The notes under the pieces: model-generated | Database searches by the model: none | What the model saw: only the letters and a program-made list of their open reading frames with translations | Told to the model about the DNA's origin: nothing | Shown here: in pieces, positions 6,447-41,221 of the stretch | Layout of the letters: every line of letters starts with the position of its first letter | Position numbering within the stretch: position 1 is the stretch's first letter | Assembly: GCA_944372055.1 (NCBI GenBank) | Contig: CALVYF010000003.1 | Span: forward strand, 8,435-72,434 | Source of the DNA: an uncultured Bacilli bacterium | Lineage (GTDB): Bacteria > Bacillota_I > Bacilli_A > RF39 > UBA660 | Length of the DNA stretch: 64,000 nucleotides | Direction of reading: 5' to 3' | Translations under genes and position numbers: made by a program

Positions 6447-8477
6447 CTAATTATAAATATATAATTCATGTTGTGCCCTAGTACAAGCCACATATAATAA
6501 ATTACGTTCATTACTCTTATATGAATTTTCTCGGTCATTATATAAAATTACACTATCAAATTCTAATCCCTTAGCTAAATATGCAGGAACCAAAATTAAG
6601 TCTCTTTTAAAGTTTTTAGTATCAAGTTTTACATAAGAAACAGATACATCATCTTTAATAAGATTAAAAATCTTTTCTGCTTCTTTATCATCTTTAGTTA
6701 TAATCGCAACACTAGAATAACTATTTTTTAAAGTATGGATATCTGAAATTAATTGTTCTTTTAAACTATCTAAATGTCTTCTAAAAACAACTGGTTTATG
6801 AGTATTCCTACGAATAACATTAACATGATTTAAATTTAAAATTTTATTTGTATACTCAATAATCTCTGGGGAAGAACGATAAGTTTTTAAAAGTTCCAAA
6901 TACTTACTATCATTTTTAAATATAGGTTTTAACTCCTCTAAAGAATCATAATGATAATAAGGATTAATATTTTGATTAACATCCCCTAAAATCGTAAAAT
7001 CACTTCTCGCAAAAATCTTGGAAATAATAATATATTGTAACTTATTATAATCCTGTGCTTCATCAATAACTACTTGCTTAATTTGTTGCTCATAAGGAAA
7101 GCCATCTAACACTCCTTTAATATAAGCAAATAATAAGGAATCTTCATAATATAAAGTTTTACGCTTAATAAATTTATCTATTTCTGTCTCTGTTAAGGTA
7201 ACCCTACAATAAGGACTAAGATAAAATCCTTTATAAATTTCTTTAAAATCACGCTTAAAATTAGCATGCTCTTTTAACAATTTACGAAAAGTGCCATTCT
7301 TCTTGCCACTACCACGATAAAAATTAGAAGACAACTTTTTAGCAATTTCATCTACTCTTTCAAATAAAGGTAATCTATCATACTTATAATGAAGTAAATG
7401 ATTAATTTCATCTTTATCTACATAATGGATTTCATCTTCATAAAAGGATTCTACAAACTCAGCATGTTCAATATAATCATTCAAATATAAATCTAAATCT
7501 TCAATAATTTCATCACTTTGTTTATATTTAATTAAATCAACATTAGGAACTTGATAAGTATAATACCTCGCAACAAAATCAGTAAATGCTTCCACTTCTT
7601 TGTATTCAGTAATGCTATAAGATAAATAATCATTAAAAGTTGTTTGAAGTGTATTATCTTCTCCTAAAGAAGGTAATACATCAGAAATATATTCCGTAAA
7701 AATAGGATTAGGAGAAAATATTAAAATGTTATTACTAGTCAAATTTTCCAAACGATATAATAAAAATGCAATTCTATGTAAAGCAACCGTTGTTTTTCCA
7801 CTTCCCGCAATTCCTTGAACAATTAGATTATGATCTTCTAAATTACGAATCACTTGATTTTGTTCTTGTTGGATTGTATTAACTACATTTTTCATCTTAT
7901 CACTAGACTCATGAGCCAACACTTCCTGTAACACCTCATCATCAATATTTAAAGAGTTATCAAAGACACCAACCAATTTACAATTTTCTATTTTATATTG
8001 CCTTTTTCTTTTTAATTCCCCAAAATATTCTCCTCCAGGTGCAATATAAGAACAAGGACCAACTTCATAGTCATAAAATAAACTACAAATTGGACTACGC
8101 CAATCATATAAAATATTATTAAAATTATCATCTTTTAAATAGGTAAGAGAAATATAAATATTCCAAATTTTGCCACGCTCATCTTTAAAAACAATAGATG
8201 CAAAATAAGGTTTCGTTTTAATCTGACATAATTTCTTAAAATAACGTTGCTTCTGTAATACTTTTTCGGCTTCTTGTTCAGTTGCTGCCATAACCTGACT
8301 CATTTCACCATCATCAAAACTACTAGAATTCTCCCACATCATCTTTTTAAATTCGACAAAGTCTTCCTCATCTTGATATACATCTTTTCCTAAGTCATCT
8401 AAAGTATCACCTAATAATTGTTGCACTTTAGATAAAATTTTTTCTTCTTTTAAATACTCATCTTTAGAAATTCCCAT
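6447..8477 (-). CDS. helD: HelD-type UvrD-like helicase (RNA polymerase recycling ATPase)
   Basis: N-terminal HelD signature (KPYFASIVF...IYISL...DWRSPICSLFYDYE). Walker A QGIAGSGKTTVALHRIAFLLY, Walker B VIDEAQDY, C-terminal GLEFDSVILY...LYVACTRAQHEL. SD AGGAGG. Confidence 0.8.
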   Translation of the reverse strand: MGISKDEYLKEEKILSKVQQLLGDTLDDLGKDVYQDEEDFVEFKKMMWENSSSFDDGEMSQVMAATEQEAEKVLQKQRYFKKLCQIKTKPYFASIVFKDERGKIWNIYISLTYLKDDNFNNILYDWRSPICSLFYDYEVGPCSYIAPGGEYFGELKRKRQYKIENCKLVGVFDNSLNIDDEVLQEVLAHESSDKMKNVVNTIQQEQNQVIRNLEDHNLIVQGIAGSGKTTVALHRIAFLLYRLENLTSNNILIFSPNPIFTEYISDVLPSLGEDNTLQTTFNDYLSYSITEYKEVEAFTDFVARYYTYQVPNVDLIKYKQSDEIIEDLDLYLNDYIEHAEFVESFYEDEIHYVDKDEINHLLHYKYDRLPLFERVDEIAKKLSSNFYRGSGKKNGTFRKLLKEHANFKRDFKEIYKGFYLSPYCRVTLTETEIDKFIKRKTLYYEDSLLFAYIKGVLDGFPYEQQIKQVVIDEAQDYNKLQYIIISKIFARSDFTILGDVNQNINPYYHYDSLEELKPIFKNDSKYLELLKTYRSSPEIIEYTNKILNLNHVNVIRRNTHKPVVFRRHLDSLKEQLISDIHTLKNSYSSVAIITKDDKEAEKIFNLIKDDVSVSYVKLDTKNFKRDLILVPAYLAKGLEFDSVILYNDRENSYKSNERNLLYVACTRAQHELYIYN

Positions 8478-8624
8478 ACTACCTCCTATTTATTCTTTAA
8501 AAACTAAGAAACGCCAAAAAACTACATAATCTATGCAGTCCCCCACTACTATGTAATTTTTAAGCAAACGTCTATTTCAATATAACATAATAAGATTGCT
8601 AATTCAAGAAAAAAACAAATAATC

Positions 8625-9104
8625 TTAATTTTTTCCAATTTGCTTACCTATTTTTTTATTACTAGATACAAATTGATTTCTAATTTCTAAACAAGATGAA
8701 ACAAAATCTAATGTAGCAGCAAACATATCACTAGATTCTTCAAATACATGAACTCTAGAATTATATGGAGCAACACGTTTACGACCAGACGGAGTCATAT
8801 AAGTAACCATTTTTCCCATAGGACATTCATCTACAAGATTTTGTGGATAAAACAACTGATATTCATTAGGAAACCTCAAAACTCTGCTCACTGGCTCAAA
8901 TGTTCCCAATATAAAGTGATATTCATCTAACTTTCTTTTTCCAGCCTCACGATATTCTAACGTAACTGTTGCTGAAATAGGATCCCCTTTGACAAGTTTA
9001 ATTTCTCCTACATCAAAAATATTAAAATACATATCTCCAACTATTTCTGGTATTTCTTTATTTTGTCTAAAAACAACATTGATTACTGGATAATCTTTTT
9101 CCAT
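8625..9104 (-). CDS. Hypothetical 159-aa protein
   Basis: ORF trimmed to the ATG at 9104 (MEKDYPVINVV...), with GGGAG 9 nt upstream. No motif recognised. Confidence 0.5.
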   Translation of the reverse strand: MEKDYPVINVVFRQNKEIPEIVGDMYFNIFDVGEIKLVKGDPISATVTLEYREAGKRKLDEYHFILGTFEPVSRVLRFPNEYQLFYPQNLVDECPMGKMVTYMTPSGRKRVAPYNSRVHVFEESSDMFAATLDFVSSCLEIRNQFVSSNKKIGKQIGKN

Positions 9105-9160
9105 AAAACAAAACTCCCAACACACGATTATAAAAATAATGAATAAATTAGGAATCCAGA

Positions 9161-21894: not shown

Positions 21895-22656
21895 TTAAAG
21901 TCCAATCCATTGAACCAAGATATCTGGAGTAATCTTTGTAAAATACAAGAAAGTTAATGCCAGTAGCAAAAACGGTCCAAAAGGAATCACCTTTTCATGA
22001 TTTTTATATAATAGAAAAAGTGACATTGGCAAAGCAAAAAGGCTTCCTAAAAATATTGCAACAGTACCTAATAGAGGATCTAAAACAAGACCAAACAAAA
22101 ACATCATTTTAACGTCTCCACCGCCAAGACTTTCCTTTTTTAGTAATTTTTCACCCAACCACATAATAACATACATAAGAACAAATAAGAAAATACCAGT
22201 TAAGATATGTTCCACTACACCAAATGCTCCTAAAGAAAAGAATTGAATAATGACGAAGTAAAGAATAAAGAAGACTAGCACCTCATCAGGAATAATTAAA
22301 TAGTTTAAATCACTAACTGTAACAATAATAAGTAAAGAAATAATCCCTAGAGCAATTAAAAACTCATATGAAAAACCAAAACTAAAATAAGCTACCGCAA
22401 ATAATATTCCAGTAAACAGTTCCATCAAAGGTTCCATAGCATCAATCTTTTTACCACAATATCTGCATTTTCTTCTTAAAACAAAATAAGAAATCAGAGG
22501 AATACTCTCTAATATAGAAAGTCTATGTTTACAATGATTACAACGATACGGAAAAAAATGATAATCTTCCTCTGCTAAACGTCCTCCTAAGACTGTATAA
22601 AAGCCACCGAAAACTATTCCTAAAATAAAAAAGATAATTAAATATAAACTATCCAT
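21895..22656 (-). CDS. pilD: Prepilin peptidase (A24 family, PilD/ComC)
   Basis: N-terminal Cys cluster CNHCKHRL...CRYCGKK. Catalytic Asp motifs SDLNYLIIPDE and GGGDVKMM. Trimmed to the ATG at 22656, with AAGGAGGA upstream. Confidence 0.88.
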   Translation of the reverse strand: MDSLYLIIFFILGIVFGGFYTVLGGRLAEEDYHFFPYRCNHCKHRLSILESIPLISYFVLRRKCRYCGKKIDAMEPLMELFTGILFAVAYFSFGFSYEFLIALGIISLLIIVTVSDLNYLIIPDEVLVFFILYFVIIQFFSLGAFGVVEHILTGIFLFVLMYVIMWLGEKLLKKESLGGGDVKMMFLFGLVLDPLLGTVAIFLGSLFALPMSLFLLYKNHEKVIPFGPFLLLALTFLYFTKITPDILVQWIGL

Positions 22657-22667
22657 AATTATCCTCC

Positions 22668-24185
22668 TTACTCCATTTGTCCATAAATTGAGAACATTGG
22701 TTGTACGATAGATAATAATATAATACCAACAACAACAGCCAATGCGCAAATCATTAATGGCTCCATCAAACTCTTCAACTGATCAATAACCGATTTATGT
22801 AATGCTTGAAAGTGATCAGCAACTTTTTCCATCATAAGGCCTAATTGTCCAGTCGACTCTCCAGTAACTAACATTTCATAGGCAACTACAGGAAATGCCC
22901 ATTCTCCTCTAAAAGAAGCAGAAATAGAGTCACCTTTTCCTAAATTATGTAAAGTTTTATCAATGATTCTTTTATAAACTTCATTATTTGTAATCTTAGA
23001 TAAGATTTCCATACTATCCGTAATAAATACGCCGTGATTAAGTAAAGAAGCAAATGTCTTAGTGAAATTAGCAACTTCATTATAGATAATAATACTCTTT
23101 ACGACTGGTATATGCATTAAAAAGATTTGTACCCCGGTACGAAAACTAACGACTTTTTTATAAGCAACAATAAAAGAAATAACAATTCCAAGAATACCCA
23201 AAATTAAAAAAATCCAATTTTCCTTGATAAAATCACTCGCTCCTAAGATAGCCAAAGTTAGTGCTGGAAGTTCAGCATCATTACTTTCAAACATAGTAGC
23301 AAACTGTGGAACTAAATAAGTCAACATAAAAATAAGAACACCAAATGCGATAGCCAAAACAACACAAGGATAAGTCATAGCACTAACCATCTGCTTACGA
23401 GTTCTCTCCATAGAAGTATAATAATCTGCCATATCATCCAAAATAGATGGCAAATCACCCGTCATTTCTGCTGTTTTTACCATGTTAACTAACAATTTAG
23501 GGAAAACCTTATTTTGCTTTAGCATCGCAGTCGACAGATTCTCACCTTTTAACAATTCATACACTAATCTTTGATAAGCCTTCTTTGTTGCTGGCTTACT
23601 AGCTTGCTTTGCTAAAATTTTAACTGCATCAACAAGTGGAATACCAGACTTAATATAAGTAGATAACTGAGTTAATCCGAAAGATAAATCAGCAACTTTT
23701 ATTTTAGCATGATCATTAATATCAATATCATATGGAGGACGAACTTTAATAGATACAATTTCATAATCCTGAGAGATTAAAAAACTACGAACCTCATTTT
23801 CGCTTTCAGCCTCAAAAGTTCCATTTTCCTTTTTTCCCATAGCATTAATAACAACATAACGGTATTTAATCAAAGGCCTCTCAGGAGCATTATCATCTCT
23901 CTTACGAATCCCTGTATCTTCAATAACTTCTTCTGTTTTTGAAGAAGAATCTGGATTCTCTAATTCTTCATTCATCTTATTAGCTTTTTGACTTTCTTTT
24001 TTTGAAAAAAAAGGCTTCCTCTTTTTCTTCTTTTCCACATCAACAACGTTATTTTCTTTTTTAATACTATTAAGTTGCGCTTGTTCAACAGCTTCTTCTG
24101 TCTTATGAAATAACTTTTTAGGCATACGTCCAAGAGCTTGGATGCCGTGATAAATTGCAATAAATGGTTTTAATAAAATATCCAC
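22668..24185 (-). CDS. pilC: Type IV pilus/T2SS platform protein (GspF/PilC/ComGB family) with a ~100-aa charged N-terminal extension
   Basis: Two GspF repeats (...LSTYIKSGIPLVDAV... and ...LLNHGVFITDSM...) and 3 TM segments. GTG start with GGGAGTG 5 nt upstream. Confidence 0.85.
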   Translation of the reverse strand: MDILLKPFIAIYHGIQALGRMPKKLFHKTEEAVEQAQLNSIKKENNVVDVEKKKKRKPFFSKKESQKANKMNEELENPDSSSKTEEVIEDTGIRKRDDNAPERPLIKYRYVVINAMGKKENGTFEAESENEVRSFLISQDYEIVSIKVRPPYDIDINDHAKIKVADLSFGLTQLSTYIKSGIPLVDAVKILAKQASKPATKKAYQRLVYELLKGENLSTAMLKQNKVFPKLLVNMVKTAEMTGDLPSILDDMADYYTSMERTRKQMVSAMTYPCVVLAIAFGVLIFMLTYLVPQFATMFESNDAELPALTLAILGASDFIKENWIFLILGILGIVISFIVAYKKVVSFRTGVQIFLMHIPVVKSIIIYNEVANFTKTFASLLNHGVFITDSMEILSKITNNEVYKRIIDKTLHNLGKGDSISASFRGEWAFPVVAYEMLVTGESTGQLGLMMEKVADHFQALHKSVIDQLKSLMEPLMICALAVVVGIILLSIVQPMFSIYGQME

Positions 24186-24295
24186 ACTGCTTCACTCCCT
24201 ATCCTTACATAAGTATATCATAACAATTTTTTTTTGAAAATAATTAAATGAACTTTTCTATCATATTGACATATATTAAAATAAGAGGTGATGAT

Positions 24296-30586: not shown

Positions 30587-31471
30587 ATGAAAAAAATTAA
30601 ACCATCAAACATCATTTTACTTGTATTAATCTGTCTAACACTCTTATATTTAGCTAATTCCGTATTCATTACAAAACAGATTCTAATCTATACAAAACTC
30701 TTTATAGAAAAACTTTTTCCTGCAAGTTTTTTATTCTTTACTTTATCTACTTTACTAATAGAATATAATGCTATTGAAACCTTAACAAAATTAATACATA
30801 AAAATGGAGCTACTCTATATGTTACACTAATGAGTTTAATTAGTGGTTTTCCCAGTGGGAGTATCTATACAACTGAATTATTAAAAAAAGGAATAATCAC
30901 AGAAAAAACAGCAAACTATCTAATCAAATTTACTCATTTCCCAAATCCTGTATTTATTTTAGGACCAGTATCTTTATTATTTCCAAATAAAACTTATACT
31001 TATAAAATACTAATTAGTATCATACTAGCAAATTTTATAATAGCTTTTATTACAAGAACAAAAGAAAAAGAAATAATAAAATACACCTCGAAAACTCCTA
31101 CAGATTTTTCAAAAACACTAACGAAAGCCACTCTAACCTCACTTAAGACAATTATTTTAATTTATGGAACTTCACTATTTCTATACCTAATCATAACTAT
31201 AATTAATCATTATTATAAATTACCATTAATCAGCTATGTATTATTAAATGGTATATTCGATTTAACAAATGGAGTATTTTTAACAAGTTTGATTACAAAT
31301 CCTATAACAAAAAGCATCATTATTATATTCTTCTTTTGTTTTGGTGGAATATCAGTACACATGCAAACAAAAAGTATCATTGCTGATACTTTAACAAAAT
31401 ATAAAAACTTCATTATAGGGCGATTACTGCAAACAGTAATAGCCATACTTATATTTTTATTGATTACTTAG
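30587..31471 (+). CDS. YlbJ-like nucleoside-recognition-domain integral membrane protein
   Basis: Polytopic protein divergent from the ylbL-like gene, as in Bacillus. The assignment rests on family resemblance only. Confidence 0.55.
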   Translation: MKKIKPSNIILLVLICLTLLYLANSVFITKQILIYTKLFIEKLFPASFLFFTLSTLLIEYNAIETLTKLIHKNGATLYVTLMSLISGFPSGSIYTTELLKKGIITEKTANYLIKFTHFPNPVFILGPVSLLFPNKTYTYKILISIILANFIIAFITRTKEKEIIKYTSKTPTDFSKTLTKATLTSLKTIILIYGTSLFLYLIITIINHYYKLPLISYVLLNGIFDLTNGVFLTSLITNPITKSIIIIFFFCFGGISVHMQTKSIIADTLTKYKNFIIGRLLQTVIAILIFLLIT

Positions 31472-33111
31472 TCAAAATTACATTTAACATCATTTTCAAT
31501 ACATTCCAAATAACGATCAATTAAACTAGTATATTTGTCCTTATTCATTCCAACAACAATAAATGCATGTGGAGCAGATTCTACTTTCCAATAATGATGT
31601 AAAGCAGTATTAGCAGCAGTAGCTTTTTCTAAAACAACCTCAGAATTACTTGGCAATACCGTGGTATCACTTTGTCCATGAATAATTAAAACTTTATCAC
31701 TAGCTTGAAAATTTCTATTACCAGCAAAAGAATCTTGATAAATATCAAAATCATCATCAGTCAATCCAACATCAACTAAGTCTATAATTAAAAACTTTAC
31801 TAAATTGTCAACAAGACCATCATCAGTTTCTTTTTTCTGAATATTAGGAAATAACTGTTGATACCAAGTAGAAGAACTAAAATCAATATTGTTTTTAGAC
31901 ATTTCATTCATAATGTTTTGATAAGATTGTTTAACACACTCTTCATAAGATAATCCAGAACAAGCAGACGAACTAGTAGAATTAACAACTTGTCCTGCTA
32001 TCTGATAATAATCAGGATATTTTTCTTGTAATGTAGACTCTAACTGATCATAAGAAATATTTCCTGAAATAAAGTTACTGATTTCTGTATCAGATACTGG
32101 CATTTGCAAATCATTTAACATTCCTTTTAACTTATCTTTAAACTCTTGTAAAGAAGAACCTACTTTCTCTAATGTAGATGTAAGATTTGAAATATTAGCC
32201 ATCTGAAGAGGCCCTTTAATAACATTCATCATAGAAGTATATCCACAATCATCTACAAATCCCTTAACATGATACTCTTTTCTTAAACTATCAGAAAAAT
32301 CTGGATTAGTAGCAAGTTGTAATGTTGTAGCACCACCTAAAGAAACACCATGAACAACTAAATTATCAACATCATAGTTTTCGTTCAAATAACGAATCCA
32401 ATCATAACTATCCAAACTTTCAAGATATCCCATGGCAACTTTACCATCACTATCTCCCTGTCCACGAAAATCAGGAGCAATAATATTATAACCATTTTCT
32501 GTATACATACTACCCATGCTTTGATACATAAATTTACCACTTAACGTATTACCATGAAGTAAAATAACCCAGTTACTACTATTTTTATCTTTAACATAAA
32601 TATTAGCACTCAATTTTTTACTTGTACCATCTAAACAATATTCACTATCATCTCCATACTTACTACACACACTACTAGAACGAATAGTAACAACTTCACT
32701 AGATACAGATGAATCAGTCTTAAGACCTAATCCTGCGAAAAAGTCATCAGCAGAATTTAATAACTTTTCAAGTTCTGCTTTTAACTCTGCAGTAGTAGTA
32801 GCACTACTATCAGAAATAGTATTTAAAATATCCAAAGATAAAACTCCTACGGCATTTCCATCCTTATATAAATCTGACATATCCATAACAGTAGATGACA
32901 AATCTTGTTTAAAATCACTCAAAGATAAATCCCCATCTACTCGCTTCAAATAATCAGTATACCCATCAACAAACTTCACAGAAGTAGCATCCATTTTATC
33001 TATTTGTACAGTTTTATGACTAGTAAAAAAGTATATAGCTAAAACTGCAACAACTAAAACAAGAGCTACTATCACAACTATTTTTAATATTCTTTTTAAA
33101 TTATCACTCAT
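31468..33111 (-). CDS. Membrane-anchored alpha/beta-fold hydrolase (third gene of the FHA-ABC/kinase operon)
   Basis: N-terminal TM segment, LLHGNT oxyanion region, nucleophile elbow HGVSLGG, later IIHGQSDT and APHAF. ATGA overlap with the kinase stop at 33108-33111. Confidence 0.8.
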   Translation of the reverse strand: MSDNLKRILKIVVIVALVLVVAVLAIYFFTSHKTVQIDKMDATSVKFVDGYTDYLKRVDGDLSLSDFKQDLSSTVMDMSDLYKDGNAVGVLSLDILNTISDSSATTTAELKAELEKLLNSADDFFAGLGLKTDSSVSSEVVTIRSSSVCSKYGDDSEYCLDGTSKKLSANIYVKDKNSSNWVILLHGNTLSGKFMYQSMGSMYTENGYNIIAPDFRGQGDSDGKVAMGYLESLDSYDWIRYLNENYDVDNLVVHGVSLGGATTLQLATNPDFSDSLRKEYHVKGFVDDCGYTSMMNVIKGPLQMANISNLTSTLEKVGSSLQEFKDKLKGMLNDLQMPVSDTEISNFISGNISYDQLESTLQEKYPDYYQIAGQVVNSTSSSACSGLSYEECVKQSYQNIMNEMSKNNIDFSSSTWYQQLFPNIQKKETDDGLVDNLVKFLIIDLVDVGLTDDDFDIYQDSFAGNRNFQASDKVLIIHGQSDTTVLPSNSEVVLEKATAANTALHHYWKVESAPHAFIVVGMNKDKYTSLIDRYLECIENDVKCNFD

Positions 33112-35108
33112 TTTTCATCCTCCTCATAAATAGCTTGAGCTTTTTTTTCTTCATATTTTTGACATTTTTTCTCATTTAACTTATATAATCTTGAACATGT
33201 ATAGCGGACCGTTGGTTTTTTAAAATCATCTTTCAAGCAGGTAGTACCCCCAAGGACATAACCATCAGGGCAATGATAAATTCCAAGTGCATCTGAAGAT
33301 ATAGTACCATAGCACATATTTCCTTTCAAAACCGTATCTGTAGTACACATATATTTAGGTGTAGCATCAATAGTAGCAGAAGATGTGCACATATTGCCAA
33401 CCGATAAATAACCAGGTGGACAATTATAAGTAGCAATAGCATTAACAGTTTCATTAGCACTGCGAATACAATTACCTTTACCATCAGAAGTTCCAGTAGT
33501 ACAAGTATAGCTAGCACTTGCAGCATAAGTATAATGACATTTTCCATCAGAATAGCTATAAGTTCCTCTAGTACAACTAGTTCGATATCCACCCCACCAA
33601 CCGCCACTAGTAGTTGGATTAGATACAATATCACAAGTAGTACCACTCAGTGTTCCTCCTAAAGAACAACCATAAGTAACAATAGCCTTAGAAGAAGTAG
33701 TTTTTGTAGTAGTACACTTATCACCCTTCCTGACATAAGAAGAATCAGGGCAACTATAACTAACAGATGCTTCCTTACTATTAGCAGTTACACATTTAGT
33801 ACCAGCCAAAACATAATTATCTGGACAATAATATATAAGTGCTGCCTCTGCACTCTCTTCTCTAACACATTTACTACCAGACAACGTAAACCCATCTGCA
33901 CACTTATACGCAAATGTTGGACTCTTAGTATTTTGATTTACACAAACGCCTTCATTCAAAATATATCCATCCTCACAATAATAGTTCTCTCTAGCAGCAA
34001 TTTCTTCTACAATTTTGACACATTTCTTTCCCTTTAAAGAATAGTTTTTAGGACACTGATAATACCCTTTAACACATATTCCTCCCTTATTTACATAGCC
34101 ATTATCACAACTACGATTAAAAAGATAAACTATAGAAGAAGAGATTATGCAAAGTAACAAAACAACGCCAAGAAGAAGTCCCTTTATAATATCCTTCTTA
34201 GTATATCTCCGACGAATCCCATCAATATTGGTATACAACTTATTGCTAAGTGCTAGATGATGAACATCTAACGTGGAGTCCAAATGGAACAATTCAACTT
34301 TTGCCTTCACAGAATTCTTAACGCCAGTTAAGGCATTCAAATCTTTTAGGACCTCATCAACACTTTGATATCTTTTTTCAAGATCAAATTCCAACAAATG
34401 TAAAACAATTTTCATAAGGCCTCGATGAACTCCTTTAATTCTAGGAATCTTAGCTCCTTGATTTCTCTTCTCTATTGCCTGATATATATTAATTTTATGG
34501 TTTTCAAAAGGTAATTTACCACCATTCAATAATACATACATAACAAGGCCCAGAGAATAAAGATCAGACCTACCATCCACTTTACCTTCTAACACTTCAG
34601 GTGCCATATAACTAGGGGTTCCAAGGAAATGTTTCTCATCCTTAGAAACACTAAGACCAAAATCCCCTAACTTATATTCACTATTAGAGTCCACAAATAT
34701 ATTACTCAACTTAACATCTCTATGAACTAAATTATTTTCATGAAAAACCTTCAAAGCATTACAAATATCTTTACCTAATCGAACGACTTCGCTTTCTGAA
34801 ATAGTCTTATCCTGATAATAAGATTTAATATCCTTCAACAATTCCATAATAATAAAAATAGAATTGCTCTTCTCTTCATTATAAAATTCATAGTAACAAA
34901 CAATATTTTTATGGTTATTAACCACTTGAATAATATGAATTTCATTCTTAAGTTGCTCAACTAAAGCTACATTAGTCGAAAAATCACTATAGTCAATATA
35001 TTTTAATACACATTCTCGCTCAACATCTTGAATTTTTTTGCGAATTAAGTATACTTTCGAATACTGTCCTTCACCTATTTTTCTAATAATTTGCCATTGA
35101 TTATTCAT
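33108..35108 (-). CDS. Hanks-type Ser/Thr protein kinase with one TM segment and a Cys-hairpin-repeat ectodomain
   Basis: Kinase motifs GEGQYSKVY, VLK, HRDVKLSNIF, DFG, GTPSYMAPE. TM segment LLLGVVLLLCIISSSIVYLF. The ~335-aa ectodomain carries about 14 repeats of C-x2-G-[YF]-x-L-x-G-x2-C. Confidence 0.88.
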   Translation of the reverse strand: MNNQWQIIRKIGEGQYSKVYLIRKKIQDVERECVLKYIDYSDFSTNVALVEQLKNEIHIIQVVNNHKNIVCYYEFYNEEKSNSIFIIMELLKDIKSYYQDKTISESEVVRLGKDICNALKVFHENNLVHRDVKLSNIFVDSNSEYKLGDFGLSVSKDEKHFLGTPSYMAPEVLEGKVDGRSDLYSLGLVMYVLLNGGKLPFENHKINIYQAIEKRNQGAKIPRIKGVHRGLMKIVLHLLEFDLEKRYQSVDEVLKDLNALTGVKNSVKAKVELFHLDSTLDVHHLALSNKLYTNIDGIRRRYTKKDIIKGLLLGVVLLLCIISSSIVYLFNRSCDNGYVNKGGICVKGYYQCPKNYSLKGKKCVKIVEEIAARENYYCEDGYILNEGVCVNQNTKSPTFAYKCADGFTLSGSKCVREESAEAALIYYCPDNYVLAGTKCVTANSKEASVSYSCPDSSYVRKGDKCTTTKTTSSKAIVTYGCSLGGTLSGTTCDIVSNPTTSGGWWGGYRTSCTRGTYSYSDGKCHYTYAASASYTCTTGTSDGKGNCIRSANETVNAIATYNCPPGYLSVGNMCTSSATIDATPKYMCTTDTVLKGNMCYGTISSDALGIYHCPDGYVLGGTTCLKDDFKKPTVRYTCSRLYKLNEKKCQKYEEKKAQAIYEEDEK

Positions 35109-35109
35109 A

Positions 35110-37488
35110 TTACTTCTTCACCTCGAGCTGCTTTTTCAAAATAAAATAACAAATACCAATAAGTACTAAAGCCATCACACAAATAATGATAATATCTTCA
35201 TAGAAATGTTTAGAAGTAAACTCAAAAAACAATTCAGCTTCTCTCTTATATCCTGGAACAACATCTTGAATCAAACTAACCATATTATTCATATCATTCG
35301 TTGTACCTAATAATTCTAAAGACCAACGACATAACATAAAATAAGAAAGAAATTCAGTAATTCCATCAAGTTCAAATAACATTCCACTAAATAGCATCTG
35401 TGGTACAAGTAAAATAGGAATATACGCCATCGCAGCACTAGGATTACTAGCTAAAGTGGAAACCACTAAACCAATAGTAGATGCTGCAAATATAGTAAGA
35501 CTAGATTCAATTACCATTTCTAAGTCCCATCGAAAAACAACACCATCAACAGGTACTGCAATAAACAGTTTCAAAGAGAATATAAGTAAAAATGCCTGGA
35601 TAATAGATAAAAACAAAAGAACAATCACTTTAGACGATAAATAAGCCGAGAGTCGCAAATTTGCCATATATTCTTTTTTTAAAATTACTCGTTCTTTACA
35701 AATTTCTTGAATAGAATTACCTAAACCAATATAAGTACCAGCAAGCGAAATAGAAAATAAAATAGATTTAGTAACATCATAGTACTCAAACAAATCATTA
35801 GTAATAATCAAAGAAAGTAAAAACGAAATAACCGGAGCTTGAAATAATAATAAAAACGTTTGAAATCTATTATTAAATATTGTTTTTAAATATCTCCTGA
35901 CCAATGTAGAACACTGCGAAAAGAAATGCTTTTTAGAAACTTTTACTTTCTCTGTCTTCTCTTCATTTTCTTTTATTCTAATTTCCTCCTGAGAATCAGT
36001 AAATTTTTGATGCCAATGAGAAACATCTTCTTCAATCAGATTATATATATCAACAAAATCATCTACTCCAAAGAATTCTTTAGCACCATTAGGAGAACCA
36101 TCATAGCAAACTCTCCCACCCCTTCCAAAAAACACAACTTTGTCGCACAAATGTAAATTCAAAGTATTATGCGTAACTAAAATAACTGTACGACCATCCT
36201 CACTCATCTTCCTCAAAGTTTTCATAATACTTCTTTCAGTTCCCGGATCAAGTCCACTAGTTGGTTCATCTAAAAAGAAAAGTCTAGGATCTGCAAGCAA
36301 TTCAATCGCAATACTAGTTCTCTTCCTTTGACCACCAGATAATCGCTTAATTTTAACGTTTTTTGCATCAGTCAAATCAACGATTTCTAAAACTTCTTGA
36401 ATTCTTCTCTCTTTCTCAATAGAACCAACCTCGTCAGGCATCCTCAAATTAGCTGAATAAGATAACATATCAGATAAAGTTAAATCCGTAAAAACAATAT
36501 CATCTTGAGGAACGTAACCAATAATATTTTTTAATGTCTCATAATTTTGATAGAGATCCACTCCATTGATTAAAACTTTTCCTTTCGTAGGTTTCATAAG
36601 ACCAGAAATACAAGACATAAAGGTAGACTTCCCTGCTCCACTTCCTCCGACAAAAGCAACAAATTCTCCAGGATTAATCTGCATATTAATATGTTGAGCT
36701 ATATCTTTTTTCTTTCCTCTTACTCGAACTGTCTTACAAACATCTTGTGCAATTACTTTAACACCTTTTTCAAAAGACTGATATAATATCTTAGCTTGAA
36801 AATAAATAATAGAAACCCCTTCAAAAGAGATAACACTATGATCAGTCAACACAACTTCACCATGAATTAAACGACCATTAACACAAACCTCTTTCTCTAA
36901 AGGAAAAAGACTAAAATGTTTATCTTTCTTCTTGATAATGACATAATCAGGAGTCAAATTATTATAAGTCAATAAAATATCACATTCATTTTTATTACCA
37001 ACTAAAACATCAGATTTAGTATCAATAGAATAACTACTCCAGTTCCTTAAAACATCATCAAACCTAACAAGAATCAAGGCACCTCCCTCAACTCTACTTT
37101 CTTCATTGTCAATACGTATAATATCATTGACTTCAATTTTCTTTTTCTGATACACTTCATCATTGATGAGAATACCATTTTTACTATCATTATCAACAAT
37201 CCACAAATCATCACCAATTAACTCAAAATACCCATGAAATTTAGAAACAAATAAAGAAGAAATAACAATATCATTAGTTTCATCTCGACCAAAAGTAATC
37301 TTATTCTTTTTAAAATCAGACACAACAAAATTACTAGCTTCTCCATGAACAAATACAGAAATCGTCTTAATAGAACTAGTTGCTTCATTGGAAATCTCAC
37401 TAGTAGCTTTCGGCACTGCATTACGTATTAAATTTTTCTTTCCCACATTATAAAAATCAAATAATGTATTCTTTACGTTAACTCCCAT
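35110..37488 (-). CDS. FHA-domain(s) + ABC ATPase + ABC-2 permease fusion (Rv1747-like exporter architecture)
   Basis: FHA-1 is ITFGRDETNDIVISSLFVSKFHGYF...DNDSKNGILIN, followed by a second degenerate FHA-like segment. Walker A GGSGAGKST, signature LSGGQRKR, Walker B FFLDEPTSGLD. Six C-terminal TM helices. Confidence 0.85.
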   Translation of the reverse strand: MGVNVKNTLFDFYNVGKKNLIRNAVPKATSEISNEATSSIKTISVFVHGEASNFVVSDFKKNKITFGRDETNDIVISSLFVSKFHGYFELIGDDLWIVDNDSKNGILINDEVYQKKKIEVNDIIRIDNEESRVEGGALILVRFDDVLRNWSSYSIDTKSDVLVGNKNECDILLTYNNLTPDYVIIKKKDKHFSLFPLEKEVCVNGRLIHGEVVLTDHSVISFEGVSIIYFQAKILYQSFEKGVKVIAQDVCKTVRVRGKKKDIAQHINMQINPGEFVAFVGGSGAGKSTFMSCISGLMKPTKGKVLINGVDLYQNYETLKNIIGYVPQDDIVFTDLTLSDMLSYSANLRMPDEVGSIEKERRIQEVLEIVDLTDAKNVKIKRLSGGQRKRTSIAIELLADPRLFFLDEPTSGLDPGTERSIMKTLRKMSEDGRTVILVTHNTLNLHLCDKVVFFGRGGRVCYDGSPNGAKEFFGVDDFVDIYNLIEEDVSHWHQKFTDSQEEIRIKENEEKTEKVKVSKKHFFSQCSTLVRRYLKTIFNNRFQTFLLLFQAPVISFLLSLIITNDLFEYYDVTKSILFSISLAGTYIGLGNSIQEICKERVILKKEYMANLRLSAYLSSKVIVLLFLSIIQAFLLIFSLKLFIAVPVDGVVFRWDLEMVIESSLTIFAASTIGLVVSTLASNPSAAMAYIPILLVPQMLFSGMLFELDGITEFLSYFMLCRWSLELLGTTNDMNNMVSLIQDVVPGYKREAELFFEFTSKHFYEDIIIICVMALVLIGICYFILKKQLEVKK

Positions 37489-37603
37489 ATCAATACCTAC
37501 TTTTATCTTAAAATAAGTATACCAAAAACAACAAAAAAAAACTACTAAAATTTTAAATTGATTTATTTCCTATCTTAAAAGCAAGTAAAAAACAGTTCAT
37601 TTC

Positions 37604-37635
37604 AAAGAAAAAAACTAAGAAAAATTTTCTTAGTT
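37604..37635 (-). terminator. Rho-independent terminator ending the minor-pilin transcription unit
   Basis: Stem AACTAAGAAAA (37613-37623) pairs with TTTTCTTAGTT (37625-37635). A long T-run follows on the minus strand. Confidence 0.65.
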
Positions 37636-37645
37636 AAAGCTATAA

Positions 37646-38065
37646 TTACATATTTATTAACTGATCACAAGATTTAACTGAACCACCGTTTAGAGTTTGA
37701 CCTTTCTTAGAAATAAGATAATTATAGCAAGCAGAGCCTTCCCAGCAACGGAACCCTCCATATAATTCAGCGTTATTGAACCAAGGCCATCCTTTATTAC
37801 TTCCCGTCCAACATTGCCAATTAACCCTTGATGTTGTCCACCAAATAGTAACATCAAAGTCATAAGCAGAATTAGCAAACGAACTTGCAAAGTTCTCAGC
37901 ACTCGATCCCATTCCAACAAACCAACAGATAGAATCTCCACCTCTTTCGCAAGCAGCTCCAGATTTAACTTCACCAGAATCCGGTGCAGGCTCTGGATCA
38001 GGTGTAGGTTCTGGATCAGGATCAGGAGCAGGATCAGGTTCAACAGAAGAACCAGAAGAAGAACC
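37646..38065 (-). other. In-frame continuation of pilin gene 38066-38692 beyond its TAG: Gly/Ser + Pro/Asp linker and a Trp/Cys-rich ~110-aa module (track ORF 37646-37912 is its distal part)
   Basis: The 153 nt between the TAG (38066-38068) and the ATG at 37912 are 51 sense codons in the pilin frame, encoding GSSSGSSVEPDPAPDPDPEPTPDPEPAPDSGEVKSGAACERGGDSICWFVG. There is no convincing SD before the ATG at 37912. Confidence 0.55.
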
Positions 38066-38692
38066 CTAACGATAATTAATTGGTGAAACGATATCAATAG
38101 AATATCTAGACCCCAAATCTGGATGATGTAATGTTATTCGCAAAGAAAATACTCGATTTGCAGTAGAAATATCAACTTCATTAATACGAAGTGCAGAAAT
38201 AGTATGTGTACCACTGCTATGAAGGTTAGGAATTGCCTCATTTCCTAAATCTGGCAATGGATATTCGACAACATCTCCCGGAAGACCATAACTAATACTA
38301 AACGAATCACTTGCATCTTTTGCGATACCCGCCTTAACGCAAAGCTCATCTTCTTCTCCAGTATCTGCAGCGTTACACCCAAATACCTGCTTTACTTCCA
38401 AAACACGTTTACTTCCATCTCGAAGTGTAAATGTAACACGATACCCTGTACCATCACTCATAGAACTAATTTCAGCCCCAGCTAATCCTATTTTAATAAG
38501 ATCATCCTGAATATCCTTAGTAAGTAAATCTCGATAAGTAACTAAGCTTAACTTATATGAAGAAATAGTCTCTTTATCTTTTAAAGCAACAATTCCATCA
38601 TATAAAGAAACTACAATCACCGCAACAATCAAAAAGGTAACTAAAATTTCAATAGCCGTCATACCCTTATTGTTTAGTTTGCGCCTTACCAT
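38066..38692 (-). CDS. Type IV (minor) pilin-like protein, 208 aa as annotated to the TAG
   Basis: Class III signal MVRRKLNNKG|MTAIEILVTFLIVAVIVVSLY with Glu at +5. SD GGAGGTGG. Its start overlaps the upstream pilin stop (ATGGTAA). Confidence 0.8.
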   Translation of the reverse strand: MVRRKLNNKGMTAIEILVTFLIVAVIVVSLYDGIVALKDKETISSYKLSLVTYRDLLTKDIQDDLIKIGLAGAEISSMSDGTGYRVTFTLRDGSKRVLEVKQVFGCNAADTGEEDELCVKAGIAKDASDSFSISYGLPGDVVEYPLPDLGNEAIPNLHSSGTHTISALRINEVDISTANRVFSLRITLHHPDLGSRYSIDIVSPINYR

Positions 38693-39288
38693 CTTACCAC
38701 CTCCATATTAGCATAAGTATAATAAGTCTCCGCATCTTCTGAACTATCAGTCGAACGTTTAAATTCTACTAACACTCGATACTTAGCTCGATTTACTGAT
38801 GGTACAATATAGTCTGGTAAAAATTCTATATAAGCATGAAAAGATTCTCCAAACTCAGAAATGGAAGAAGCAATCGGTTTAAAGTTTTTAATACCACTAG
38901 AGTTTTGATCTAATTGATAATTAGTAACAATAACTTTATTTACATGCAATCGTTGCCACATCGTAGTACAAAAATTCCTATCCTCACTATTTGCCGGAAA
39001 ATTACCACAGAAAGTAGAGCCATCTTCTCCTTCATAAAAATCATAACCTCTACTATTTAAAAAATTAGAAATAGAAGAGAATGAATAATTATCATCTTGA
39101 AGAAAGGATTTTATCCAATAAGCGCCATATTTACTATCTAAATCATCATAAAAATCTCTTCTCTCATACTCTCCAATCAAAGGATAAAAATTAATATAAA
39201 TAACAGAAAACACCGCCGCCACAAACACTGTAACCACTAAAGTTTCCACTAACACAAATCCCTTATTATTTTTTTTCATTTTCCCCAT
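38686..39288 (-). CDS. Type IV (minor) pilin-like protein, 200 aa
   Basis: Class III signal MGKMKKNNKG|FVLVETLVVTVFVAAVFSVIY with Glu at +5. Confidence 0.75.
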   Translation of the reverse strand: MGKMKKNNKGFVLVETLVVTVFVAAVFSVIYINFYPLIGEYERRDFYDDLDSKYGAYWIKSFLQDDNYSFSSISNFLNSRGYDFYEGEDGSTFCGNFPANSEDRNFCTTMWQRLHVNKVIVTNYQLDQNSSGIKNFKPIASSISEFGESFHAYIEFLPDYIVPSVNRAKYRVLVEFKRSTDSSEDAETYYTYANMEVVRW

Positions 39289-39370: not shown

Positions 39371-41221
39371 ATGATTAAATTTGACTTTAATAAAACGCCT
39401 ATTACTCAAATCGCGGATTATATAATAATTTCATCTGCTAAATCAAATGCATCAGATATCCATTTTGATCCAAGAGAAGATGGTATGATGGTAAGAATGC
39501 GTATAGATGGAGATTTACAAAATTTTACATTTATCCCAAAGGCATATGAAAGAAATTTAACTACAAGATTAAAGTTATTAGCAAACATGAATATTACAGA
39601 ATCTCGTCTTCCACAAGATGGAGCCATCAAAGGAAACTTTGGTGGCACTTATTTGGATATGCGTGTATCTTGTCTACCCCTAAATGAAGGAGAAAAAATC
39701 GTTATTCGTATCTTAGACTATACAAGAAGTTTACAAGGATTAGATTCCCTTGGATTTAACGAGCAAAACCTTGCAAGACTAAAACGTATGATTAAAGTAC
39801 CAAATGGTATTATTTTGATTACCGGTGAAACTGGTTCTGGTAAATCTACAACTGTATACTCTATTCTAGAAACTCTAAATCGTGAAGAAACTAATATTAT
39901 TACAGTAGAAGACCCTATTGAAATGAATATCGAAGGACTAAATCAAGTACAAGTAAATGCCGAAATTGGAATGACTTTCGCAGCTGCCCTAAGATCTATT
40001 TTACGTCAAGATCCAAACATTATTCTAATTGGAGAAATTCGTGATAGTGAAACAGCACAAATTGCTGTACGTTCCGCAATTACAGGGCACCTAGTTCTAT
40101 CAACCATCCATACCAACAACACTCTAGCAACAGTAGAACGTCTATTAGATATGAATGTAGAGCGATACTTATTATCTACTGCATTAACAGGAATCATATC
40201 TCAAAGATTAGCTAAAAAAATCTGTACAAAATGTAGAATTGAAAGAGAGACAACTGATTTTGAAAAAATGATATTTAAAAAATATTTACATAAAGATGTC
40301 GATAAAATATGGGATGCTAATCATGAAGGTTGTGATGCTTGCCGTAAAGGATATAAAGGTCGTATTGCTATCCAAGAAGTACTGGAATTAAATGATGAAT
40401 TACGTAGTGACTTAAATAATGAAAACATTTCTAAAGAAGAATTATCTAAATTAGTTTATAATGATAAAATCATTACTATGTTACAAGATGCTCTAGGAAA
40501 AGTACTAGATGGAACAACTAGTTTCGAAGAAGTACTACGTGTAATTGAAATAGAAGATGCAGAAGATTTCTTTGAAAACGATACCAAAGAAAAATTAAAA
40601 GAAAAAGAAATGGAAAAAGAAAAAGAAATCAAAAAAGAACTAGAAGAACAAGAAGAAAAACAACAGAAAGAACAAGAAGAAAAAGAACAGAAAGAACAAG
40701 AAGAAAAAGAACAAAAAGAAATAAATAAACACCACCTAGAAGAAGTATCTATCAATAATACTACTCCATCATCAGGAACTCACGCAACACCTCGAACAAT
40801 TCCTACGAATATAGAAGAAATACCAAAGGTATCTATTGTAAAAACAACAAGTGGAAGTACGCCTATCAACTCCTTAGAAAAAATAGAAGCAATAGAGAAA
40901 CAAAAAAACATTCAAGAAATTACCAACAATCTAAAAACAGAGGTAAATAAACCTACACCATTTACAGAACCAAACATTACAACTATCACACAAAATAAAC
41001 CAATAATACCACAAATACAAATAACCCCTGCCAAAAATCAAGAAATAGAACCACAAAATAAAGAAAATCCTGTAATAATTCCAACCATAACCACGGTAGG
41101 GCCAATAACAAACCAGCAACCACAATCGCAAAATCCTAGTCCAGTACAACAATCAACAACACTTGTTCTACCAATACAACCTATAATACAGCAACCGCAA
41201 AATACAAATACACAACAATAA
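39371..41221 (+). CDS. pilB: GspE/PilB/ComGA-family secretion ATPase with a ~220-aa low-complexity C-terminal tail
   Basis: Walker A GETGSGKSTT, Asp box, Walker B ILIGEIRD, His box, and the tetracysteine motif CTKC...CDAC. It lacks the long N-terminal domain of PilB, so it is ComGA-like. The tail is E/K-rich and then P/Q/T/N-rich. Confidence 0.85.
   Translation: MIKFDFNKTPITQIADYIIISSAKSNASDIHFDPREDGMMVRMRIDGDLQNFTFIPKAYERNLTTRLKLLANMNITESRLPQDGAIKGNFGGTYLDMRVSCLPLNEGEKIVIRILDYTRSLQGLDSLGFNEQNLARLKRMIKVPNGIILITGETGSGKSTTVYSILETLNREETNIITVEDPIEMNIEGLNQVQVNAEIGMTFAAALRSILRQDPNIILIGEIRDSETAQIAVRSAITGHLVLSTIHTNNTLATVERLLDMNVERYLLSTALTGIISQRLAKKICTKCRIERETTDFEKMIFKKYLHKDVDKIWDANHEGCDACRKGYKGRIAIQEVLELNDELRSDLNNENISKEELSKLVYNDKIITMLQDALGKVLDGTTSFEEVLRVIEIEDAEDFFENDTKEKLKEKEMEKEKEIKKELEEQEEKQQKEQEEKEQKEQEEKEQKEINKHHLEEVSINNTTPSSGTHATPRTIPTNIEEIPKVSIVKTTSGSTPINSLEKIEAIEKQKNIQEITNNLKTEVNKPTPFTEPNITTITQNKPIIPQIQITPAKNQEIEPQNKENPVIIPTITTVGPITNQQPQSQNPSPVQQSTTLVLPIQPIIQQPQNTNTQQ
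40646..40717 (+). repeat. Three tandem 24-nt coding repeats (GAACAAGAAGAAAAAGAACAGAAA-like) inside the ATPase tail
   Basis: Units at 40646-40669, 40670-40693 and 40694-40717 encode EQEEKQQK/EQEEKEQK/EQEEKEQK. Confidence 0.85.

Follow-up and report, generated by a model that had tools for sequence, protein, structure and literature searches.

Does the minus strand of the window (the whole 64,000-nt stretch of DNA analysed here, 30.4% GC) hold two small genes or one gene with a stop codon in its middle? A pilin ORF ends there in TAG, and the same frame runs on behind the stop through a linker and a domain rich in tryptophan and cysteine. The original prediction had set three readings side by side: a modular pilin that a nonsense mutation broke recently, a sequencing error, and regulated readthrough that yields a minority long form. 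Comparison with sister strains points to the first of these.

The pilin operon and the frame behind its stop

The features in question follow one another along the minus strand:

38686..39288, minus strand: pilin 1, 200 aa, KG/FVLVE; the upstream pilin gene, whose stop overlaps the start of pilin 2
38066..38692, minus strand: pilin 2 core ORF, 208 codons plus TAG; class III prepilin signal KG/MTAIE, with Gly-1 and Glu+5
38066-38068, minus strand: premature TAG at codon 209, one base from TAT (Tyr), with G for T on the coding strand at 38066
37979..38065, minus strand: coding sequence of a 29-aa Gly/Ser and Pro/Asp/Glu linker, 3' of the stop in the window allele
37649..37978, minus strand: coding sequence of the 110-aa W/C-rich C-terminal module, with TAA at 37646-37648; intact, severed from the pilin by the TAG
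37646..37912, minus strand: 88-aa ORF annotated by gene callers, starting at the ATG at 37912
~37606-37635, minus strand: AU-rich hairpin (10-bp stem, 3-nt loop) and U7 run, probably the operon's intrinsic terminator

ORF calling and translation confirm the pilin frame as first described: pilin 2 has the N-terminus MVRRKLNNKG/MTAIEILVTF... and the 3' end ...ATT AAT TAT CGT TAG. Beyond the stop, 139 further codons remain open as far as the TAA at 37648-37646, encoding GSSSGSS, then VEPDPAPDPDPEPTPDPEPAPD, and then the module, which contains 8 Trp, 6 Cys, 4 Tyr and 6 Phe; the Trp and Cys counts given earlier are thus correct. This open frame is no product of chance: sister strains have an intact 348-aa gene whose 3' part matches it at 100% identity. 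Less firm is the terminator, which had been called strong and placed at 37604-37635. The hairpin and its U7 run are present, but the fold is worth only -7.8 kcal/mol (z-score -1.5), so that its strength had been overstated. The hairpin is not called by a consensus terminator scan, which requires at least three G-C pairs; a terminator function is plausible in a genome of 30% GC.

The prepilin signal of pilin 2 (MVRRKLNNKG/MTAIEILVTFLIVAVIVVSLY) comprises a basic leader ending in Gly, a hydrophobic stretch and a Glu at +5, and both G10 and E15 are invariant in an alignment of 26 homologs. The Pfam N_methyl model scores 20.5 bits (E 3.4e-4), 0.7 bit short of its cutoff of 21.2, and the motif is clear by eye. 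In the AlphaFold2 (AF2) model of the intact protein, an N-terminal helix of 55 residues (13-67) is followed by about nine beta-strands at pLDDT 84-94, a predicted arrangement that fits pilin architecture. The linker is modelled as disordered, with pLDDT below 50 at residues 209-220 and 40-60 up to about residue 240, and the module stands apart as a separate domain. A Foldseek search of the two-domain model against the PDB gave no significant pilin match, and phmmer of the core against the PDB returned spurious matches only.

Machinery for pilus assembly is encoded in the same window:

39371..41221, plus strand: PilB/GspE-type assembly ATPase, divergent from the pilin genes (Pfam T2SSE, E 1.4e-115)
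22668..24191, minus strand: platform protein of the T2SSF/PilC family (Pfam T2SSF, E 2.3e-51)
21895..22782, minus strand: prepilin peptidase of the A24 family (Pfam A24_N_bact, E 7e-23; Peptidase_A24, E 9e-12)

The synteny of pilins and machinery is common to the related contigs L002, L014 and L017/L018. The ATPase at 39371-41221 carries a C-terminal tail of roughly 220 aa that is of low complexity and rich in Glu, Lys, Gln and Pro.

Stop and tyrosine alleles at codon 209

Two database proteins carry the intact allele. P0001 is a protein of 348 aa, 99% identical over full coverage to the conceptually fused query, and reads ...SPINYRYGSSSGSS...; P0137 equals the conceptual product of the window except for Tyr209, and across codon 209 both proteins read ...SPINYRYGSSSG... 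P0137 occurs on six contigs, including that of the NCBI MAG GCA_949287315.1, and P0001 on one, which places the intact allele on seven contigs. The P0001 contig (L001) aligns to the window without gaps and has TAT where the window has TAG; TAT likewise occupies codon 209 in L009-L012. These last four contigs differ from the window at 2-5 positions, among them 38066, over the 8-11 kb from pilin 1 downstream. No differences separate the TAG and TAT haplotypes in the 417 nt 3' of the stop, so that linker and module DNA are 100% identical between the window and the intact alleles. The mutation must therefore be very recent, and the downstream frame is intact simply through lack of time for decay; its intactness is thus uninformative about selection.

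The TAG allele was found on 19 contigs, from many samples and several assemblers, at coverages of 2.7-36x. Sources include the ENA sets BRZ_SD, BRZ_SM, BRZ_QL, ERZ24911193 and ONAT22 and the Logan set SRR32105369. The exact 208-aa product occurs on 12 contigs; the exact 88-aa product was counted on 13 contigs of NCBI, ENA and Logan in one comparison and on 19 in another. From the pilin genes downstream the TAG contigs are almost 100% identical to the window, their sole differences being a single SNP and a stretch of N within the L006 copy of the FHA-ABC gene, and the module sequence is identical in every one of them. A near-clonal TAG strain thus circulates beside near-identical TAT strains. 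Among assemblies on record the stop allele outnumbers the intact allele (19 versus 7 contigs), an excess that would be unexpected if loss of the module were deleterious but is compatible with neutrality, with clonal spread or with positive selection. In the pilB region, two backgrounds carry TAG haplotypes and one carries TAT haplotypes; the polarity of the SNPs, with L002 as outgroup, is mixed.

Two further polymorphisms were observed in the neighbourhood. The 5' half of pilin 1 (38983-39283) differs from L001 by 31 SNPs in 300 nt, with only four in the next 2.7 kb, a cluster that looks like a recombination patch between otherwise near-identical strains. In the repeat region of the PilB ATPase (40690-40713), a 24-nt in-frame indel is polymorphic, and L003, L004 and L009 are without the 24 nt.

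Turning to more distant relatives, the fused protein used as query matched 262 database proteins at E <= 0.01, and among the 120 matches listed most cover the core, about 58-61% of the query. The closest larger lineage (L002, about 93% nucleotide identity) has a short allele, a 208-aa pilin ending ...INYP; listed variants of this short allele (P0122-P0128 and P0136) occur on 11 to 101 contigs each. Its natural stop is also a TAG at codon 209 (...TAT CCA TAG AAA TAA...), and directly 3' of it lies the 3' end of a convergent gene for a 296-aa membrane protein. In a BLAST comparison of L002 with the window the alignment stops at 38071 and restarts at 31425, which defines a segment present in the window only:

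31426..38070, no strand assigned: 6.6-kb segment absent from the L002 short-pilin lineage, with its left edge within pilin codon 208; it includes the coding sequence of linker and module
35110-37488: FHA-domain ABC transporter, within the segment
33108-35108: Ser/Thr kinase with a Cys-rich repeat ectodomain, within the segment
31468-33114: alpha/beta-hydrolase, within the segment

Each edge of this segment falls in the 3' end of one of two convergent genes. The ectodomain of the kinase consists of about ten Cys-rich repeats of ~35 aa.

What follows the pilin core varies from relative to relative. In L002 and L014, pilin 2 ends at a natural stop with nothing behind it. P0041 and P0143 have a sense codon and then the W/C module, and P0003, P0017, P0022 and P0030 have different modules. 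L017/L018, of the same synteny and without the 6.6-kb island, carry another module on pilin 2 (9001-10713), in which a core 90% identical to that of the window is joined to a different extension of 360 aa. This extension closes with repeats rich in Trp, Tyr and Gly (GWYYF..., WYYFYDG...), reminiscent of cell-wall or choline-binding repeats. Pilin 2 has a hot spot for module exchange at its C-terminal end. In L014 ('uncultured Mycoplasmatota bacterium') the W/C module is found on pilin 1 (347 aa, 7281-8324) beside a short pilin 2 (8356-8997), from which it follows that the module has moved between adjacent pilin genes; P0070, P0100 and P0140 are also carriers of the pilin 1 type. A fixed cassette of island plus module was considered and rejected, since L014 has the module and lacks the island. 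None of the relatives compared has a stop between the pilin core and the W/C module: each has either a sense codon there or no module.

A tryptophan- and cysteine-rich domain at pilin C-termini

The module had not been recognised as a member of any known family, and searches of Pfam, NCBIfam, the PDB and BFVD bear this out. Pfam and NCBIfam gave no match to the module, only low-complexity matches to the linker (PARP, ClfB and SslE); a sequence profile search of the PDB with the module gave nothing; and Foldseek of the modelled module against the PDB and BFVD gave best E values of 0.18 and 0.95, respectively, at TM scores below 0.5. The best of these structural matches share merely a loose RRM/ferredoxin-like topology.

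A word-index search with the module alone returned no candidates, a limitation of the index, and its place was taken by a HMMER profile search run exhaustively over 1.84 billion representative proteins. This search gave 14 matches, three of which are repetitive junk and 11 true clusters. In ten of the 11 the module lies at the extreme C-terminus, nine of the proteins being full-length and starting as prepilins, the tenth (P0145) being a pilin fragment cut at its N-terminus; the eleventh cluster, P0144, is a 72-aa fragment without the first 49 profile positions. A complete stand-alone module protein was never found among the 1.84 billion proteins. The prepilin N-termini of the carriers include NKGMTAVE, NKGFVLVE, KGFTMIE, SGFTLIE and NNGFTLIE, and the module occurs on five or more mutually unrelated pilin scaffolds (326-690 aa), behind linkers that vary from Pro/Asp/Glu to Pro/Ser/Thr to Gly-rich.

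When seven copies of the module (50-63% identity to that of the window) are aligned, 30 columns are invariant, which include all six Cys and the motifs CERxGxSxC, DFDV, TGxNKG and FRCWEGSxCY. AF2 confidently predicts a compact alpha/beta fold (pLDDT 82, pTM 0.78) for the module, which probably contains three disulfides. Judged by these sequence comparisons, the module constitutes a previously undescribed domain family that is rare, lineage-restricted and found only at pilin C-termini. The conserved aromatic residues, the disulfides, the exclusive occurrence in pilins, the grafting on many carriers and the analogy with modular pilins (PMC8179133) suggest a role in ligand binding or adhesion, like that of an adhesin or lectin.

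A third, large prepilin of about 652 aa (11195-13153, minus strand; MDVNMNNNKG/FTLIE...) is also encoded in the window and contains repeated Cys-containing Ig-like segments. Its scaffold type is shared with P0074 and P0069, which end in the W/C module in other MAGs; the protein of the window has a different Cys-rich tail at its C-terminus.

Modular type IV pilins have been described in Streptococcus sanguinis, in which PilB joins a pilin to a vWA module and PilC joins a pilin to a lectin module; the pilin carrier displays the effector module grafted to it on the filament, probably at the tip (Raynaud et al. 2021, PMC8179133). Like these proteins, the intact gene combines a pilin module bearing a class III signal, a linker and a C-terminal 'effector' module, adjoins pilus machinery and belongs to a monoderm-derived (Bacilli-related) lineage; in both systems one carrier takes various modules and one module is found on various carriers. 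The intact allele P0137/P0001 fits the definition of a modular pilin (348 aa, linker at 209-240, compact module), whereas the window allele, split by the TAG, does not. The two systems differ in that the present module matches no InterPro or Pfam signature and has no structural relative that could be detected, that the linker is not a short loop but a long stretch of 29 aa rich in Pro and Asp, and that a nonsense SNP interrupts the fusion in the window.

Origin of the stop codon and its consequences

We propose that the locus of the window is a recently truncated modular type IV pilin gene, in which Tyr209 (TAT) has become TAG in an uncultured member of the Mycoplasmatota that uses genetic code 11, and we assign this reading a probability of about 0.86. 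The intact gene would encode a pilin module of ~208 aa, a disordered linker of 29 aa and a Trp- and aromatic-rich module of 110 aa, and such a bimodular pilin would be the ancestral state of the strain lineage. One T-to-G transversion would then have turned Tyr209 into TAG precisely at the boundary between core and linker. Translation would end after the pilin module and yield a 208-aa non-modular pilin equal in length to the short allele of the related lineage; the truncated product, matching a natural non-modular allele in length, should therefore still be processed and assembled. Linker and module would persist as an untranslated 3' remnant, intact only through the recency of the mutation. 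That the gene was broken recently by a nonsense mutation, the first reading of the original prediction, is what the TAT allele in strains only 2-5 SNPs apart over 8-11 kb indicates. By analogy with other modular pilins, we infer that the intact protein would sit at the pilus tip or surface with its module binding a ligand.

Each of the other readings can draw on part of the same evidence. An error of sequencing or assembly in the window record would look just like the one-base difference from the intact allele, but the same base recurs, at up to 36x, in 19 contigs that trace back to independent samples and assemblers, and 12 contigs across NCBI, ENA and Logan encode exactly the 208-aa product; the chance of an error is negligible. 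Scarcely more credible is an independent translation of the 88-aa ORF as a small W/C-rich protein. The ATG at 37912, as noted before, is the first and only canonical start (ATG, GTG or TTG) 3' of the TAG, and gene finders call it; the bases preceding it (TGGTTTGTTGGA), however, contain no Shine-Dalgarno sequence with proper spacing, the product lacks a signal peptide, and its start lies inside the domain, so that the first two of the six conserved Cys and, in the AF2 module model, the first strand and helix are missing. Nor did the exhaustive search ever find the module complete and on its own. Gene calling on a truncated gene accounts for the 88-aa ORF, which is not an independent gene.

Programmed or regulated readthrough of the UAG, giving mostly short pilin and a minority with the distal module, would account for a TAG allele that is common (19 contigs), for a stop exactly at a domain boundary and for the intact frame downstream, and for a subunit located at the tip, a small share of the long form would be biologically sensible. 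The same arrangement, an in-frame UAG followed by a long frame encoding a real domain, is seen in recoding of the kind known from pyrrolysine UAG decoding and viral leaky stops. Here, however, the stop is not conserved where the downstream frame is: the sister strains have TAT, and every other module-bearing relative has an uninterrupted frame with a sense codon at this site, an outcome that counts against readthrough by the first half of the refuting condition in the original prediction. Age alone, at 2-5 SNPs per 8-11 kb, explains why the frame is intact. No RNA structure was detected at or after the TAG (fold of 101 nt around and after the stop, z = -0.02), and no suppressor tRNA is encoded in the window, whose sole tRNA is a tRNA-Met. 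The stops of 50 long ORFs in the window are TAA in 34, TAG in 10 and TGA in 6; TAG is thus a normal terminator under the standard bacterial code, and an alternative code with TAG reassigned was rejected on this count. We know of no established case of programmed UAG readthrough in bacteria without Pyl machinery or a suppressor. Readthrough is unnecessary for any of the observations and without positive support, and we regard it as highly improbable. A reversed polarity, with TAG ancestral and the fusion formed by loss of the stop (TAG to TAT) and capture of a downstream module, gains from the natural TAG at codon 209 of the related short allele and from the two pilB-region backgrounds of the TAG haplotypes against one for TAT. 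An in-phase frame of 139 codons at 30% GC that encodes a proper linker and a conserved disulfide domain nevertheless implies arrival as a translated fusion; the same linker and module are fused to pilins in other species; and codon 208 (CGT) and the sequence past 209 match the long allele and not the short one (CCA ... AAA). This direction of change is accordingly very unlikely. Nor is the TAG likely to stem from gene conversion by the short allele, since flanking mismatches only 1-2 nt away were not co-converted (CGT versus CCA, GGT versus AAA).

Under the preferred reading of a recent nonsense mutation, the position of the stop deserves attention. Of 146 nonsense substitutions that the ORF allows, only two fall in codon 209 (two of 66 at or after that codon), and the agreement in position between the new stop and the stop codon native to the short allele hints at selection for a clean truncation. 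Together with the 19:7 excess, it fits removal of the module by selection, for example in escape from antibodies or phages, and fits chance plus clonal spread as well. The TAG allele may thus be a natural 'module-off' variant, either neutral or favoured. It is possible, if unlikely, that the allele is actively selected, through basal leakiness of UAG that supplies a few module-bearing subunits or as one side of a balanced TAT/TAG polymorphism. Basal stop leakiness of 1e-4 to 1e-2 is conceivable at this TAG; were it exploited, a few module-bearing subunits per cell would suffice for a tip pilin, and the leakiness would set the stoichiometry of short to long forms. Were the polymorphism balanced, host immunity, or phages directed against the module, could drive a 'module-on/module-off' alternation. 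In either case, the coincidence of the stops and the excess of TAG contigs would be signatures of selection.

A precedent for natural loss of part of a surface protein is inlA of Listeria monocytogenes, in which natural premature stop codons truncate a surface adhesin. There, too, one-base changes create premature stops in a surface-protein gene at appreciable natural frequency, and part of the protein is lost. Unlike in inlA, a complete and probably functional carrier pilin remains here and only the distal module is lost, and the stop falls where a non-modular allele has its natural one.

The locus is an ordinary gene truncation and gives no pointer to new translation biology. Two genes of 208 and 88 aa that would otherwise pass as hypothetical are a single modular pilin gene, sampled shortly after a nonsense mutation. 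Modular pilins as such are already established (PMC8179133); the new part is the W/C-rich domain family, with about 110 aa and six invariant Cys, at the C-termini of type IV pilins of uncultured Mycoplasmatota. Its shuffling among five or more pilin scaffolds, two of them encoded by neighbouring genes of one operon, provides a clean natural example of pilin grafting, and the module is a candidate adhesin or lectin of organisms that have so far escaped cultivation. Finally, the co-circulation of TAT and TAG alleles on a near-clonal background amounts to a natural experiment on the cost or benefit of the module.
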